This document shows positions 3,998-30,126 of a stretch of DNA of 64,000 nt, piece by piece. The notes under the pieces are model-generated. The model worked only from the letters and a program-made list of their open reading frames with translations. It searched no databases and was not told where the DNA came from. Position numbers and translations under genes: made by a program. Every line of letters begins with the position of its first letter. Positions within the stretch are counted from its first letter, which is position 1. The stretch lies in sequence record MN850630.1. One strand, written 5' to 3'. Origin of the DNA: Escherichia phage naam.

Positions 3998-6775
3998 ATG
4001 AGCATGTGGTCGTTCGATTTTGAGTCATCCGGTTTGCTGGAAGACCCAGATCTTTATTATCACTGCGGCCTGTTTAAAGAGCTGAATAAGAACCGTTTTA
4101 TGCTGTTCCTTCCTCTGAATGACCGCACACACTACTCCGAGGAGGATATAGAGAAGGCCAAGAACTTTATTCTGGCAAAGAAAACTCTTTATAAGGATTT
4201 TGAAGTTCGCATAGCAGATTTTTCGGAGTTGGAAGGTTGGCTTACAGGAAATTCCGACTGGTCACCAACAGCTTTGAACTGCCATAACTGCTACAGTTAT
4301 GACTTTATGCTGATGGAGAGATTATCCGGTATTCATTTTGATATGTTCCGTGATCCTAAATGTATGGGGACTATCAACGACCACCAGGTTAACCTGTTTG
4401 ATACGTTGGCGATGAGCCGAATCTTGTGGCCTGATCGCCCTTTACCAAAAGGTTGTCCGGACTCCGTATTCAACCCGGTTACTAAGAAAATGCAGCCTGT
4501 TGGTCCTCACGGCCTTATGGCATGGGGCTACGCCCTTGGTAACCAGAAAGTTCAAATTGATGACTGGCGCGATCTTCCGTTGTGGAAGTATGTGGATCGT
4601 GTATTCGAGGACGTTATCATCCAGGAGCTACTCTGGAAAGAGCTGGTAGCGGAATCAAAAGGTGTATTCTACGGCAAATCTGACATGCAGAACTTTATGT
4701 ACGATCCTGCCAAAGAGAAGCCGAAAGGGTTCAAGAAGATCACCTGGAAGAACGCATTGCGCCGGGGTATGCTGCAACACTTCCTGATGGAGCTGCAGGC
4801 CCGTCAGGGTGTGTATTTTGACATAGATGGGGCTATTGCTTTACGTGACCGTTGCGATGCTTGGATGAAAGAAATCGCTGATCGTGTTGAACCACAACTA
4901 CCTTTAAAAGAGCTGTCAATGTCTCAGCGGCCCAAGTTCCCTGAAAAGCCGTTTAACCAAGATGGGACAATCTCCAATAATGGTTGGAAATGGTTAAAAG
5001 ATAAGCTTGGCTATCCTGTGGACATGAGTGCTTTAGAGTTCAAGGCCCCGCCTAAGCGAGCATTTACCTCTACAGGAGATGTCAGTAAGATGGGGATAAA
5101 ATGGTGTGAAGAGATGGGCTGCAAAGACCCAGATAAGATGGCTGATTTCTTGAGAGGCTATATTAAGGGCACCTCCACACCACAACCTTTGCCTAAAGAG
5201 CTAATGGATCAGGCAATAAGTGATCTACAGCAGAAGCGAATGCCGGACTGCAAGATACCTATGAAAATCAGCAACCAGGACGACATTAAGCGATACCTGA
5301 TCAGTGCTGGTTGGCTTCCGACAATGTGGAGAACTAAGGATGTAACTAAAGACAGCAAGAAGAAAGCTCTACCTGATGCAGATGTTGATGCACGAGTATA
5401 TGCATATATGGACGAGCTTTTAGAGTCAGAGTATTGTGACCTGATTATCAACTTCTGGAACAAAACTGATGCTAAGTTCCAGACAACCGTGCACAAGTTC
5501 CGAAGCTTTCCTAACTCCGAAAGGATTAAAAAGGAAGTATTCGGGAAAATACGTAGAAAAGCTAGGGCACTTATTACTTCTCCGCAACTGAAAGATACTT
5601 TTGGACACCTATGTCCAAATCTTGAAAAATTGAACGGAGAGATGGCTAAAGATATCGTCTTGTGGTTATCATTGCGAAACCGCAGATCGGTCCTTGATCC
5701 AATCAAGGAGGATAAGGTTGATACTGGTCTTCTTAATCACCCACGTTTGAAGATTGACCATAAGCTTCCTGCTAAAAGCTCTGGATTAACAAACACTTCC
5801 CGACAGAAACACAGTATTTGTGCAAACATGCCTAAACCATCTCCTAAAGTGGTTATGGGTAAAGAGATGCGTAGTCTGTGGGGTGTTCCTCCAGGATACT
5901 TTGAGATCGGTATTGACGGGTCCAACTTAGAGCAGCTTATCGGGGCTTGGGGTGCCTTTGAGTTCGACAACGGCTTGTATTATGATGTTGTAAGTAACGG
6001 AGACGCACACCAAAACAACGCCGAGGCATATACAAAAGTAGCAGGCAGAGAGGTATCTCGTAACGACGGTAAACCTATCACGTATGGGGTTATGTACGGG
6101 GCACAAAAAGACAAAGTTGCAGACATGCTGGATATCTCCCCAGAGTTGGGACAAAGGGTAATTGATGCACTTTGGGATGCCAACCCTGGTCTTAAGGGGC
6201 GTAAAGAAGATCTGGAGAAATTCTGGGAAGCAACGGGTAAGAAGTTTATCTACTCTTTTGATGGTCATGCTATCTGGACCCGATCTAAACACTCTTTACT
6301 TAATGCATACCAACAGAATGGTGGTGCATCGTTGTGTGACTTAGTTGGGATACTCATGCACCACCAAATGGTGAAGCGTGGGTGGTACGATGAAGGTGTT
6401 CGTCGTATTATTTATTACCATGACGAATATCAGCTTCAAGTCCCTGACACACCTAAGTATAAGACTGTGTACACCTTCGACACAATTGAAGAACTGGAAG
6501 CATTTAAGGCAGAGCAGGAGTCCAAACTTCATGTGTTCGACGGTCATAAGTACAAAAAGGCACGCAAGGATGAGGACGGAAACGAAGTGGTTGACAGAGA
6601 CGGAAACACGGTGTACGATCCTATCCTGAACGATGACGGAAAGCTTGAACTTATCTGGAGCCCTGTGGGTGAAATGGTGGTGCATTGCTTCTGGCAAGCT
6701 TCTAAAATGATGGGCGTCCCGTTTCAGATCACAGGTGAATACCTGTGTGGTCGTAATTGGGGTGATTGTCACTAA
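3998..6775 (+). CDS. DNA polymerase, family A, with 3'-5' exonuclease domain
   Basis: 925 aa; exo motif FDFESSG; PolA motif B K..YGVMYGAQ; motif C YYHDEYQL; AAGGAG RBS. Confidence 0.9.
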   Translation: MSMWSFDFESSGLLEDPDLYYHCGLFKELNKNRFMLFLPLNDRTHYSEEDIEKAKNFILAKKTLYKDFEVRIADFSELEGWLTGNSDWSPTALNCHNCYSYDFMLMERLSGIHFDMFRDPKCMGTINDHQVNLFDTLAMSRILWPDRPLPKGCPDSVFNPVTKKMQPVGPHGLMAWGYALGNQKVQIDDWRDLPLWKYVDRVFEDVIIQELLWKELVAESKGVFYGKSDMQNFMYDPAKEKPKGFKKITWKNALRRGMLQHFLMELQARQGVYFDIDGAIALRDRCDAWMKEIADRVEPQLPLKELSMSQRPKFPEKPFNQDGTISNNGWKWLKDKLGYPVDMSALEFKAPPKRAFTSTGDVSKMGIKWCEEMGCKDPDKMADFLRGYIKGTSTPQPLPKELMDQAISDLQQKRMPDCKIPMKISNQDDIKRYLISAGWLPTMWRTKDVTKDSKKKALPDADVDARVYAYMDELLESEYCDLIINFWNKTDAKFQTTVHKFRSFPNSERIKKEVFGKIRRKARALITSPQLKDTFGHLCPNLEKLNGEMAKDIVLWLSLRNRRSVLDPIKEDKVDTGLLNHPRLKIDHKLPAKSSGLTNTSRQKHSICANMPKPSPKVVMGKEMRSLWGVPPGYFEIGIDGSNLEQLIGAWGAFEFDNGLYYDVVSNGDAHQNNAEAYTKVAGREVSRNDGKPITYGVMYGAQKDKVADMLDISPELGQRVIDALWDANPGLKGRKEDLEKFWEATGKKFIYSFDGHAIWTRSKHSLLNAYQQNGGASLCDLVGILMHHQMVKRGWYDEGVRRIIYYHDEYQLQVPDTPKYKTVYTFDTIEELEAFKAEQESKLHVFDGHKYKKARKDEDGNEVVDRDGNTVYDPILNDDGKLELIWSPVGEMVVHCFWQASKMMGVPFQITGEYLCGRNWGDCH

Positions 6776-25260: not shown

Positions 25261-25524
25261 ATGAAACGCCTTGATCAGCTCAAATTAGTTCAATATATGG
25301 CTTATCGTGTTCTTGAAGTCCAGAAAGGTAGCAAAAAAGAGGTTTGCGAGAAAGCTTATAAGATCTTCACTCGCAAAAAAGATGACTGGATGCTACGCCA
25401 GACCAAAAAGGCTGACATCTTGGGGTACCTGGAAGAAGAGATCCGCCTTGAAGAGCAAGAAGAGATCCGCCGTAGTGAGGCAGATTATCAGGCAGCTTGG
25501 GAAAACTGGATGAGCAACAAATAA
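25261..25524 (+). CDS. hypothetical protein
   Basis: 87 aa, AAAGAGGAAAAA RBS. Confidence 0.55.
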   Translation: MKRLDQLKLVQYMAYRVLEVQKGSKKEVCEKAYKIFTRKKDDWMLRQTKKADILGYLEEEIRLEEQEEIRRSEADYQAAWENWMSNK

Positions 25525-25590
25525 TACAACAAGTTACGGTCAGGGGGGTAATAAAGCCCCTTGATCGCATAAAAATTATGCCATCTCTGG

Positions 25591-25619
25591 TTGACAGGGA
25601 TCGGCAGTTTTGCTATATT
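25591..25619 (+). promoter_or_regulatory. sigma70-type promoter (TTGACA-17-TATATT)
   Basis: Read directly upstream of 25669 gene. Confidence 0.55.
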
Positions 25620-25668
25620 CTTTTTTGAAGGGAAGTTGTAAGAAAATTAACTAAGAGGTAAAAACACC

Positions 25669-26088
25669 ATGAACATTAAATCTAATAATCCGGCATATAG
25701 CTTTGATAACGCTTTTTGTCACGGTCCGGCGGCGAAAGGATTCGAAATCGATGGTAAACTAATTATTGTCAATGTTGACGGGGAAGAGGTTGCAGTATAT
25801 CCGGTGGCAGACGTAAAAAGCCGTTTACAATGCCGCATGGATGTTACCGCCTATCAGCTTGATCCGGTCCGCATAGTTGCCCTGGTCCTGGAAGAAGAAA
25901 TTAAAGCCATGCACCATAGCAACAGATTTATTGGTGACGCGCAGGATAATATGAAAGTATGCCGCCATAAAGTTAATGAAGTGCTTAAAGAGTACGGCTA
26001 TAAAGATCTTATGATCAAACGTGAGGAAAAATTCCGCTACCGTAACGACCTGGCAAATCGGATTTTTGAAATATACGAATCATTATAA
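25669..26088 (+). CDS. hypothetical protein
   Basis: 139 aa, AAGAGG RBS; last gene of plus-strand block. Confidence 0.6.
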   Translation: MNIKSNNPAYSFDNAFCHGPAAKGFEIDGKLIIVNVDGEEVAVYPVADVKSRLQCRMDVTAYQLDPVRIVALVLEEEIKAMHHSNRFIGDAQDNMKVCRHKVNEVLKEYGYKDLMIKREEKFRYRNDLANRIFEIYESL

Positions 26089-26106
26089 TTTTTTAACTGA
26101 ATTATC

Positions 26107-26132
26107 AAGGGGCTTAGGCCCCTTTCTTTTTG
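26107..26132 (+). terminator. rho-independent terminator
   Basis: AAGGGGC-ttag-GCCCCTT + TCTTTTTG. Confidence 0.65.
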
Positions 26133-26135
26133 TCT

Positions 26136-28580
26136 GCTCTTCCCCCTACCATAAACGGCCCTACCTGGCAAGTGGAATAATTGACGAGCCATCAATCCTA
26201 CACACTGTACAAACATACATGTAAAATAGCTATTGCATAACCTTTCATTGTGTGGTAGCGGTGCTATTTTTTACCAGTTTTCCTTCCAAAATTGCACGTA
26301 ATGCCGCTATTGCACAAATTTTAACCTGATGCACATCTCCAATATCTTGTCAACAACTAAAAATCTTTATAAGTCATACACTTACACAGCATCGAAAGCG
26401 TGTTCTACGCGAAAAATCGAGTATAACTATAGCCGCCAGATCTCAGAATTCACGTACGCACGCCATTCTATAGCCTGCAAAGTATTTATTCCAACCACAG
26501 AATAACGGAATAGTCAATACCTGCATAAAATAATTATTAGTGTAAACTGCATAACATAAATCAGCTCAGGTGTCAACATTTTTCGTAAACAGTCCGAAAT
26601 TATCACGATGAGTTATCATAAACAGAGAAATCTTTAGTCGTCTAATGTTTACTGTACATTACTATACTGACTGGAATCATTAGATGACTAAGAGAAAGAT
26701 AAGAAATAATTAATAATGTAATTGTTTTACCTGTAACAATAAGGCAACTATGCAAACGAATGGCATGGCGCGACGGAGTCGCGACATAATATAAAAGCAG
26801 TAACCATCACCCCCGTGATAGTTTGTCTGCAATCTATTAATCAGATCATAGTTGCCTTGTATTCAGTTAATCATGACATGATAAGCAAGGCAACTATAGA
26901 TCTTCTAATAGTTGCCCTGCTTTTATATTATGTCATAGAAACACCCGAAGGGGTGACCAAAGGTCACCTGGCATAGCCAGTGAAAGATTATTAACTTGCT
27001 AATAGTTATCATGCAAACGAATGGCATGGCTGATTATCGGTGTGTAAACAGTCAATCATGTAAATGGTTAGCATGTGAACAATCAGAAATGTAAACAATC
27101 CAGTGTGTAAACTAATAGGTGTGTAAAAGTGTCATGTTGTGTCAGTTAGGTCACATTATGTCAGACAAGTTTTTCTCCTCTTTGTCAAGTGCTGCATGAA
27201 AAATTTACAAGCTTGTATGGTAGCATTTTTGCGGCCCTGTTTACATTCAGTGTTGTATGTATAATCCTTGTTGTGTGGGCGTTTAGACGTCTGGACGGTC
27301 AGAAGTCTGCAGGTTAATATCTAATCTATCGGCTGCTAACTATATCCCACACAAATAGTAAGAAATATAATTGTTATGTGCGTAAACAGTAACCCATGTT
27401 ATCAATCCCTGTATGTATCGCCAGTGGTGCGCATAATGGGTATTATGTTAAATTGCCCGTAATGATAACAGTTCTCACAATGATAGGTATTCTCATTCAC
27501 CCCCACAAGATAGGTTGCAAATGTTGTGCCACTGTGTGAACGGCCTGGCCTATTAATTTGCCTCACTGCCTTGATATTTGAGAATTATTATAAGAATGAG
27601 AAGTATTCCCATTTCGTCCGCCTGGCAGCACTCCTGTAGGTCAGGTCAAAATCGTGGTAGAACTAGACCTATCCGGATATTTCTGGCTGACTCTTCAGGT
27701 CTGTGTGGGAAAAGCCAACCTCTCCGGCGGGGCAGGGGGAGGTCAATTAAAAAATTTACGTGGTGTATGAAGCGCTCTTCAGGTAAGGCAGGTATTATGG
27801 GATGAAACCCGCTTCAGGCAATGATATTTGTGGGTGTGATATTTGCTGGAAGGCCAGATATGACGGGACTCCCGGCGGGGCAGGGGTAGTACAGACAGGG
27901 AAAATATGGGGATGTAGTTGGGGAAATTGATCAGACAGGTAGAGTATGGAATATGTTACAGGTATGTTAAATATGGAGGTTGAATATCTGTAGGATTTGT
28001 GTGTAAAATCAAAGACTTAAGGGGTGTTGTGGTATTTTCTATAAATAATTCAAGTTTAATAGGCAATATTTGTCTCTATCCGCTTTGTGTGGTAAACAGA
28101 TTCAGATGAGATTGGTTTACAAGTGTATACATAATATACAAATTAAAGATACAAGAAACCCCCCTCCCCCTTCGGCTACCATTCACCTTTTCCTCTGACT
28201 GGTACTTAAACACTTATTCAGACTCTTCAGGTTATCACCCATATATCATATGGCAGTGACTGGTGTCCTCCGGCCCCTCTTTCGTCACCCGTCCGCTTCG
28301 CCATGCTAATGCCATAGCTAATGGTTCGGTTGTTCACCCTGTTCACTCAGGTGTATCTCTATACCCCTTCAAACCGAAGAGAACAGAAAACCCGAATTAC
28401 TCGGTAAAAGAAAAGAGAAGAACTTAATTTTATCAGGATAGGCAAGAATGTCAAGGCATGACTGCTCACTAAACAAGCAAACAGTCATGTGTGGGAGGTA
28501 AGTGATTGTGGTGGTAGGAAATTTAGTTGAAAGATGTGTTATAGGTGCTTCCAGCACTTTAGCCGGGCAGCTAATTGTGT
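26136..28580. other. repeat-dense non-coding region between convergent gene blocks
   Basis: No convincing ORF; direct and inverted repeats, GTGTAAAC-like motif cluster, GC-rich direct repeats. Confidence 0.6.
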
Positions 28581-28581
28581 G

Positions 28582-28797
28582 TCAGTCCAGCGGTTCATCC
28601 TCTACTTCACTGAAATCAATGTTCATGGTCTCTTCCCAACCATCGATCTCAGCACAAGAGTGGAGTTCTTTAGGGTTTACTCCCAAAGCCTCAGCAACAG
28701 AGTCTATATTTAACACCTCTGGCAGGTATGATTCATCGAATTCAAGGTAAATCAGGCCACGAGTGTTGTCAGCTCCACCAAATATCTCTATCTTCAT
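28582..28797 (-). CDS. small acidic protein
   Basis: 71 aa, GAGGAG RBS. Confidence 0.5.
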   Translation of the reverse strand: MKIEIFGGADNTRGLIYLEFDESYLPEVLNIDSVAEALGVNPKELHSCAEIDGWEETMNIDFSEVEDEPLD

Positions 28798-28918
28798 AAA
28801 ATCTCCTCTGGGAATGAGAGTGTGAACAGGGTTTTATACGTTCCAATACGCTGGAATTATGCACGTTTGCCTCTTCAGGCCATGCTTTAGCATGAGGAAC
28901 CTGTGTGGGCTCGGTGCT

Positions 28919-29131
28919 TCATAGTCTACCACCTCTGAACTCTTCGTGCTCAGGCATAATAGAGAACCAGATATCTACGATGTCCTCCCACGTCAGGTCA
29001 TCAGCCTCAGGATCTGTCTGGGACGAAGATGAAGAGTCCTCAGAATCTAAGTTTTCCTCTTTAACTGGCTCATCCAAGGGACATATGGTCACTCCTTTGG
29101 ATGTCTCTTCAGATGCATGTGTGTTGATCAT
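28919..29131 (-). CDS. small acidic Ser-rich protein
   Basis: 70 aa, AGGTGGG RBS. Confidence 0.5.
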   Translation of the reverse strand: MINTHASEETSKGVTICPLDEPVKEENLDSEDSSSSSQTDPEADDLTWEDIVDIWFSIMPEHEEFRGGRL

Positions 29132-29229
29132 GTCCCACCTGTGAGTATTCCGGCAACAGCCGCTATGGACGTAATGATCATCAGGATCACCACTAAAACT
29201 TCGGACAATGTTCTCATTGTGTATTCCAT
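29128..29229 (-). CDS. small membrane peptide (33 aa)
   Basis: Hydrophobic; stop overlaps next ATG (ATGA); weak RBS. Confidence 0.35.
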   Translation of the reverse strand: MEYTMRTLSEVLVVILMIITSIAAVAGILTGGT

Positions 29230-29249
29230 ATTCTACAAACTATGTGTGG

Positions 29250-29278
29250 ATACTATCACGAGAGCGGTAATGTGTCAA
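29250..29278 (-). promoter_or_regulatory. sigma70-type promoter (TTGACA-17-TAGTAT)
   Basis: Hexamers on minus strand with 17-nt spacer. Confidence 0.5.
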
Positions 29279-29440
29279 CAGAAACGCCGCGAGGGTTTGG
29301 TTAAAATCCGAGCGTATGGTGATTTGGGTCAAAACGGACGTGCGTTCTCGCTACGCTCGAAAGAGAGATTTGTTTGTAGGAAGCTCTTAAACGCTCTGTA
29401 ATGAGATTATCTGTCCAAGGTATGCAATCGTGCACCAGAT

Positions 29441-29466
29441 AAAGAAAAGGACGCCACAGAGCGTCC
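29441..29466 (-). terminator. rho-independent terminator
   Basis: GGACGC-tctgtg-GCGTCC + TTTTCTTT on minus strand. Confidence 0.55.
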
Positions 29467-29491
29467 TAGGTGTCTTAAATTTGATATTTTG

Positions 29492-29803
29492 CTATACCCA
29501 TGAGGGCTTATCAAGGTTGGAGTAGCTGAAAGGTGTCAAAAGGTGACTGTCAAAATCTCTCAAACTATCTAAATCTTTTTCCTCGTCCTGACACCATCTG
29601 TGCCTACATTTATTGTTGTAGTGCATAGAATGCATAGCGTTCTGCAATTTAACAGGCACAAGTGATTCAGGAGTAGATAGTATTGTTGGGTATGCCAGAA
29701 CCACCTCAAACAGTGGAAACACATCGAAACTAAAGTCTACCTCTGCAGAGGTTGATGGCATGTAAGAGTATTTAGCCGCCTTTGTAGACATAATCCACCT
29801 CAC
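29492..29803 (-). CDS. hypothetical protein
   Basis: 103 aa ORF, start overlaps upstream stop. Confidence 0.5.
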   Translation of the reverse strand: MRWIMSTKAAKYSYMPSTSAEVDFSFDVFPLFEVVLAYPTILSTPESLVPVKLQNAMHSMHYNNKCRHRWCQDEEKDLDSLRDFDSHLLTPFSYSNLDKPSWV

Positions 29804-30126
29804 ACAGGTTTGATAATACCTTTACCGAATAACTCTTCGTATCTAATCTTATCCGGATCCCACTCCTGGATAATTTCGAAGACAATATCCAACCCTGGGA
29901 TAATCACTTCTCCAGTGTCGAGCTTAGCAAGAACAAAACCGGAAGGTTGAATGGTTTCCCAGTTGCGCCGATTGGAATAGAAGACCTCGAAAATATCGCC
30001 GACCTTTATCTGTTGATCAAGATGTTCAAGATTCTCTTTCATATAGACGCAGCGGATTTTTCGTGCAGGCCATAGACCACCTGCATCACGTTCATTTAGC
30101 TCTTTTACAGTAATCGGTATACCCAT
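29800..30126 (-). CDS. hypothetical protein
   Basis: 108 aa, GAAGGAGA RBS. Confidence 0.55.
   Translation of the reverse strand: MGIPITVKELNERDAGGLWPARKIRCVYMKENLEHLDQQIKVGDIFEVFYSNRRNWETIQPSGFVLAKLDTGEVIIPGLDIVFEIIQEWDPDKIRYEELFGKGIIKPV

Follow-up and report, generated by a model that had tools for sequence, protein, structure and literature searches.

In phage T7, whose sequence was checked directly, the 160-bp terminal repeat is followed by the heptamer CCTAAAG, which starts 15 bp past the repeat and recurs every 13 bp from position 175 to ~340, while the right repeat is preceded by an irregular repeat set; a literature search on these short-repeat arrays (SRL and SRR) returned nothing citable on their function. 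In phage λ, cosB contains three sites for the small terminase subunit (TerS) beside the nick. Three cosB sites are found in λ, 21 and Monarch, but only one in N15, for which unequal crossing-over was proposed (PMC4669245). In the pac region of SPP1 (boxA, boxB and boxC), sets of direct repeats are located around the cut and diverge between close relatives (PMC4737164). Here we describe a locus of related architecture in a 64,000-nt stretch of DNA from Escherichia phage naam (MN850630.1; the whole stretch is referred to as the window). Two consecutive direct-repeat arrays, termed array A and array B, lead up to the boundary of a putative direct terminal repeat (DTR), which is present in the window as a single collapsed copy. 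By analogy with the surroundings of the T7 terminal repeat, the locus more closely resembles a recognition array for genome ends or packaging than a replication origin.

The initial annotation reported at least six direct copies of a TGTRAAC-like motif within ~100 bp, and this cluster was borne out by the re-analysis. Six TGTRAA cores start on the plus strand at 27043, 27059, 27074, 27090, 27106 and 27122, corresponding to a regular spacing of 16, 15, 16, 16 and 16 bp; four of the six are strict TGTRAAC, and the remaining two read TGTAAAT and TGTAAAA. Over the whole window, TGTRAAC shows no global enrichment (24 observed versus 21.5 expected). The enrichment over a shuffled background is a local one: dinucleotide-preserving shuffling of the window (500 replicates) yielded at most 2 TGTRAAC and 4 TGTRAA per 100 bp, compared with 4 and 6 observed, shuffling of only the local 2 kb (2000 replicates) gave the same maxima of 2 and 4, and none of 5000 shuffles of the 106 bp itself reached 4 TGTRAAC or 6 TGTRAA. 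The clustering of TGTRAA is far beyond chance. The self-similarity of the array peaks at a lag of 16 (0.52 versus a background of ~0.25) and again at 31–32. Tandem Repeats Finder missed the array owing to the divergence of its spacers. No open reading frame (ORF) of ≥40 aa runs across 27035–27138. The further copies that had been listed outside the cluster are present, but not all in the form described: those at 27239–27245 and 28115–28121 are minus-strand TGTAAAC and thus inverted rather than direct, while the copies placed at about 27362 and at 28086 are in fact CGTAAACAGT at 27381 and GGTAAACAG at 28091, which start with C or G instead of T.

The cluster noted in the initial annotation ends 24 bp from the DTR boundary, and both arrays together are located 1–125 bp from it. 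The DTR was mapped by homology to phage Gotham, whose record bears a 459-bp repeat_region annotation at either end; when the window is aligned to the two Gotham ends, the repeat falls, over its full length, at 27164–27622. For Gotham, terminal repeats of 459 bp and a single specific packaging start shared by all virions were reported (PMC7471380), and the vequintaviruses EdH4 and HdK5 have terminal redundancies of 458 bp (PMC6563267). Furthermore, seven GenBank records from several submissions start at the base equivalent to 27622, and the boundaries of the 514-bp DTR reported for the Klebsiella phage KPP-1 (Mydovirus) align to the same sequence landmarks, namely GGTGCTA/GACGGAC and TTGACAAGGAGAG...GTGT/ (the slash marks the boundary). 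Judged by homology, the window appears to hold the collapsed terminal repeat, which would correspond to the physical ends of the virion DNA. Array B abuts this repeat, such that its last GTCA ends exactly at the DTR boundary (TGTCA/GACAAG) in every genome examined, and in every relative examined it consists of 3–7 units that are 9–11 bp apart. On the other side of the DTR, at 27623–27690, TGGCAGCACTCC is followed in relatives by one of at least three alternative inserts, among them a second copy of GGCAGCRCTCCTGTAGG; both DTR flanks are thus hot spots of indels, in contrast to the conserved DTR itself. In the records of CM1 (759–1740 of the stretch examined) and I29 (784–1835), two DTR copies lie in tandem, probably as a result of assembling both virion ends.

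The 2.7 kb around the cluster are 93–97% identical to >100 rV5-like coliphages of the genus Vequintavirus, and on sequence grounds the window belongs to an rV5-like phage. For the comparison of relatives, the distance from a near-invariant anchor sequence upstream of array A to the DTR boundary was measured in 13 genomes and four more records were inspected (17 relatives). The anchor-to-boundary interval ranges from 105 to 210 bp in the 13 genomes. Array A is found at the same place in nearly all relatives examined, with 11 units in rV5, 8–10 units in slur16, Murica, JLBYU08 and an IMG/VR contig, 4–6 units in ECP32, A6-1, FV3, Gotham, Alma and the window, 1–3 units in nomine, FFH2, navn and CM1, and none in the V18 record. 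The differences between relatives are indels of whole units (15–16 or 31–32 bp). Among 52 distinct units, the core positions G0, T1, A3, A4 and T8 carry 1.7–1.9 bits and the spacer positions 0–0.35 bits, a figure that is somewhat inflated since the units were picked by core match, although nearly all contiguous units were captured. Likewise, when orthologous arrays are aligned, 21 of 90 core columns (23%) are variable, compared with 28 of 58 spacer columns (48%; Fisher p = 0.002). The lower variation of cores than of spacers, together with the turnover of whole units, indicates that the cores are constrained and the number of units is not. The view of the cluster as iteron-like direct repeats that probably form a protein-binding array thus holds, considering the regular spacing, the cores that are kept while spacers drift, and the occurrence in nearly all relatives. 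A scan of IMG/VR for three consecutive units retrieved the array in one Vequintavirus contig only, the other four matches being unrelated coding or giant-virus repeats. In the V18 record (640–735 of the stretch examined), the second anchor and the entire array A are missing and a T12 run is found at this place, which possibly reflects an assembly error or a natural deletion. Coordinates of the arrays and of the surrounding elements are collected in Table 1.

Table 1. Arrays, terminal repeat and associated sequence elements, with positions in the window.
Feature	Position	Strand	Description
Isolated GTAAACAGT site	26585–26593	+	Left of the array; GTAAAC core invariant in 8 aligned relatives, next bases vary
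Second copy of the first 20 nt of the anchor (ATGCAAACGAATGGCATGGC)	26750–26769		Exact copies start at 26750 and 27011
Perfect 18-nt inverted repeat	26783–26800 / 26917–26934		Encloses nested AAGGCAACTAT inverted repeats; arms 116 nt apart
Anchor ATGCAAACGAATGGCATGGCT	27011–27031	+	Near-invariant; array A always starts 12 nt downstream
Array A	27040–27128	+	Six head-to-tail units of 15–16 bp, core GTRAAYWRT
Core G positions of array A	27044, 27060, 27075, 27091, 27107, 27123	+	
Sixth unit of array A			Degenerate, GTAAAAGTG
Array B	27129–27163	+	Four (T)GTCA-type units 9–10 bp apart; GTCA at 27131, 27141, 27150, 27160
DTR, single collapsed copy	27164–27622		459 bp; homology to both ends of phage Gotham
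Isolated inverted site, TGTAAACAG on the minus strand	27237–27245	-	Inside the DTR
Isolated GTAAACAGT site	27382–27390	+	Inside the DTR; GTAAAC invariant, next base A, T or G in relatives
Inverted pair GTAAACAG ... GGTTTAC	28092–28121		Right of the DTR

The closest analogue of the locus is found in the short-repeat arrays of T7, where a short, exact DTR is likewise accompanied by regular cores of the same orientation just outside of it, separated by divergent spacers, and a T7-type packaging mode has been reported for this phage group as well. However, the sequences are unrelated (GTRAAYWRT and TGTCA here, CCTAAAG in T7), so that the likeness is architectural and not one of homology. In addition, the period is 15–16 bp with a second tier of ~10 bp, compared with 13 bp in T7, the array is found on one side only, whereas T7 has arrays on both sides of the terminal repeat, and the phage is a 137-kb myovirus, in contrast to the 40-kb podovirus T7. 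The array is not surprising in kind, since T7 shows the same architecture, and its function is putative. In λ cosB, where R3, R2 and R1 lie beside cosN, several copies of a short site are similarly found beside a terminase cut, and their number varies between relatives, as it does for the putative binding sites described here. By contrast, the λ sites are of mixed orientation and have an IHF bend between them, while no IHF core match is present near the array; λ has cohesive ends instead of a DTR, and TerS binding has been demonstrated for λ, whereas the sites here are candidates. As in SPP1 and SF6 pac, direct repeats flank the presumed initial terminase cut, but SPP1 uses headful packaging and its pac lies inside the TerS gene region.

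Tentatively, and as the most probable of the explanations weighed here, the arrays may represent an accessory protein-binding platform for the terminase or for genome-end processing at the DTR boundary. We infer the binding of a protein, its identity and its role in packaging or end processing because the array is real and strictly periodic and adjoins the homology-mapped DTR boundary, because the last unit of array B ends at this boundary in every relative examined, and because selection acts on cores and not on spacers while indels comprise whole units. This reading is further favored by the concentration of conserved single GTAAAC sites around and inside the DTR (five of the six copies of GTAAACAG), as well as by the precedents of the T7 heptamers, λ cosB and SPP1 pac. 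In such a scheme, array A (one site every 15–16 bp) would be followed in the concatemer by array B (TGTCA every ~10 bp), the cut site and the DTR. A phage DNA-binding protein, most likely the small terminase subunit but possibly another end-processing factor, would load cooperatively onto the sites of the same orientation, and its loading would position or stimulate nuclease cutting at TGTCA/GACAAG during T7-type packaging. Array B would then act as the constant, cut-proximal element and array A as a dispensable enhancer, the unit number of which drifts via slippage or unequal crossing-over. The terminase would cut at the DTR boundary, judging from the reported T7-type ends of the phage group. 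In a more far-reaching and rather doubtful version, the two-tier array would be the terminus-recognition element of T7-type DTR packaging in a large myovirus, cooperatively bound by the small terminase, with the number of units evolving fast and tuning the packaging efficiency. If true, a phage group with therapeutic use would gain a defined pac-like signal, and the unexplained repeat arrays that accompany the terminal repeats of T7-like phages would become accessible to experiment. Packaging signals of short-DTR phages are poorly defined outside T7 and T3, and the array is a testable candidate recognition element. Terminal repeats of these phages have been reported, while our literature search found no description of a flanking array. 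Since rV5-like phages are common candidates for therapy and biocontrol, and database records often misplace the termini of such phages, a variable-copy array at the DTR boundary could serve as a practical landmark for orienting these genomes.

Several observations weigh against a role of the arrays in packaging or end processing. The position of the DTR in this phage is transferred by homology, and no array accompanies the other DTR boundary, where the 420 bp to the right of 27622 contain only an indel-prone segment in the 13 genomes. Array A is probably not essential, since it is missing from the record of V18 and only 1–3 of its units are left in navn, CM1 and FFH2, and its distance to the cut depends on how many units array B has. 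No equivalent array lies alongside the DTR of KPP-1 (Mydovirus) or that of the phAPEC8-like phage Mt1B1_P17, and it is therefore not a general requirement of this type of packaging. For the T7 arrays, no established function is known. Finally, the direct repeats of SPP1/SF6 pac turned out not to be specific TerS targets, and the DNA-binding domain of SF6 TerS shows little specificity for the pac repeats (PMC4737164), so that recognition need not reside in the repeats that adjoin a cut.

It is unlikely, though to be taken seriously, that the array serves another site-specific DNA-binding protein of the phage or the host that is unrelated to packaging, for example one that represses or activates promoters in the gap, protects the genome ends, takes part in DNA entry or is involved in primase loading. 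Such a protein would fit the conserved cores and the dispersed single sites, which occur in both orientations over 1.5 kb, and the homologous gap of phage W70 keeps GTAAAC sites without a tandem array. A near-consensus σ70 promoter (28454–28427, minus strand) is aimed at the DTR, and a gp4-like primase/helicase is encoded in the window. Moreover, the direct TGTCA repeats of array B, 10–11 bp apart, presumably resemble the sites of OmpR/PhoB-type regulators, and array B contains GTGTC, a recognition sequence of the T7 gp4 primase. However, promoter prediction found no strong promoter in the array or its immediate vicinity, the motif is restricted to the terminal region instead of preceding genes throughout the 64 kb, and pure transcriptional control leaves the exact abutment of array B and DTR in all relatives unexplained. 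An iteron-type origin, at which a phage initiator would bind the GTRAAC repeats and open nearby AT-rich DNA, is less probable, and the proposal of the initial annotation that the cluster is a candidate origin found no support. Like plasmid and lambdoid iterons, the repeats are arranged in tandem and in the same orientation, with conserved cores and regular spacing, and the surrounding gap is highly conserved though non-coding. The DNA of lowest GC content in the window (31–35%, at 26500–26800) and inverted repeats are found nearby, but this AT-rich DNA is located 250–500 bp from the array, with a palindrome in between, and is thus not adjacent to the repeats. In addition, the units are shorter than iterons (15–16 bp with a 9-bp core), and the ten neighboring small ORFs are without Pfam match at E≤0.01, so that no initiator gene is recognizable beside the array. 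Three of the six units in the window fit the relaxed DnaA box TTWTNCACA in reverse orientation at 8–9 of 9 positions. Across relatives, by contrast, the consensus has C or T where the DnaA box needs A, conservation does not extend to the TGTG part of the box, and exact TGTGGATAA is absent from the gap.

A copy number that varies from 0–1 to 11 among viable relatives would also be unusual for an essential origin. The position at the physical end of the genome likewise differs from that of iterons, and T7-like replisome genes are present in the window. T7 origins are promoter-driven and not iteron-driven, and we know of no T7-like replisome that uses iteron initiators. Furthermore, the cumulative GC skew has a peak instead of a minimum in the gap, tracking the direction of the convergent transcription; the same remark on GC skew and transcription was made in the rV5 genome paper, which does not mention repeats and termini (PMC3606486). 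As a separate candidate, a cluster of DnaA boxes (TTATCCACA or TTWTNCACA) was rejected: the comparison with the DnaA-box consensus shows that the units do not match as such, only 27120–27128 fitting at 9/9 and two units at 8/9, and in the 52 distinct units the required A is C or T, while the TGTG part carries only ~0.1–0.8 bits. Least probable of all is a selectively neutral minisatellite, which would expand and contract beside a recombination-prone genome end and have no function of its own. The gains and losses of whole units are in agreement with such a repeat, as are the range of copy numbers and the fact that 26857–27160 is the most variable part of an otherwise 95–100% conserved gap. Neutral drift should, however, erode all positions alike, whereas cores are kept and spacers are not, both within and between orthologous arrays. 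The same core also recurs in conserved single-copy sites outside the array, and the array keeps a fixed 12-nt offset from the anchor in every relative that has retained this anchor.

The 64 kb contain six copies of the 8-mer GTAAACAG, counted over both strands, and five of these fall within 26585–28092, among them single sites in the DTR and the inverted pair on its right. The GTAAAC cores of the single sites are invariant in eight aligned relatives, while the adjacent bases vary. In the homologous gap of W70, a more distant phage (Septuagintavirus), GTAAAC/GTTTAC pairs and GGGTAAACAGATG are present; the GTAAAC sites are single or paired, with no tandem array among them. The same gap (4098–4465 of the stretch examined) contains five copies of CCACAAAGA, which is related to TTTGTGTGG. 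In the window, TTTGTGTGG(G) forms a second dispersed motif in and around the DTR, with copies at 27271, 27354 (minus strand) and 28085, and also at 27702 and 28488. Two further repeats lie to the right of the DTR, namely two copies of CCGGCGGGGCAGGGG (27724–27741 and 27872–27889, 148 bp apart) and three of (G/C)(A/G)CTCTTCAGGT (27689, 27773 and 28221). The perfect 18-nt inverted repeat is located between the two copies of the anchor, with its right half in the indel-rich zone 26857–27160, and is only a possible member of the unit. The nested AAGGCAACTAT / ATAGTTGCCTT arms are found at 26741–26752, 26847–26859, 26883–26897 and 26908–26922.

The arrays and the DTR lie in a 2.4-kb gene-free gap between two converging gene blocks, with plus-strand genes at 1–26088 and minus-strand genes at 28582–64000. 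The plus-strand block encodes a T7 gp4-like primase/helicase and a Pol I-type polymerase, the minus-strand block ribonucleotide reductases, a thymidylate synthase and a ligase; no TerS gene is present in the window. The gap (26100–28580) contains no credible ORF, yet it is 95–100% conserved over eight aligned Vequintavirus genomes, with variation limited to 26857–27160, 27634–27682 and 27733–27761, the first of these being by far the most variable segment. This non-coding conservation suggests further functional elements. A search of Rfam over 25500–30000 gave no significant RNA family, and no tRNAs were found in the window. The σ70 promoter at 28454–28427 consists of TTGACA, a 16-nt spacer and TG-n-TAAAAT (11/12 match), follows the last minus-strand gene and shows 100% conservation among relatives; no ORF is found in the 290 nt downstream of it, and their folding is not unusual (z = -1.0). 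Terminator-like hairpins on the minus strand are found beyond the arrays, at 26955–26942 and 26823–26802.

The last plus-strand gene before the gap (25669–26088) encodes a protein of 139 aa without a Pfam match, which has 85–90% identity to proteins of phAPEC8-like phages (Phapecoctavirus), members of a different subfamily. The phAPEC8-like homologue (1245–1664 of the stretch examined) is likewise located ~1 kb from the genome end, and the genome end of Mt1B1_P17 has a DTR of ~325 bp. This suggests that the end-proximal gene has been exchanged between phage groups. Lastly, ~19 records labeled ‘Campylobacter phage’ (MG0656xx) are 85–96% identical to the coliphage sequences across the gap, and their host labels look doubtful.

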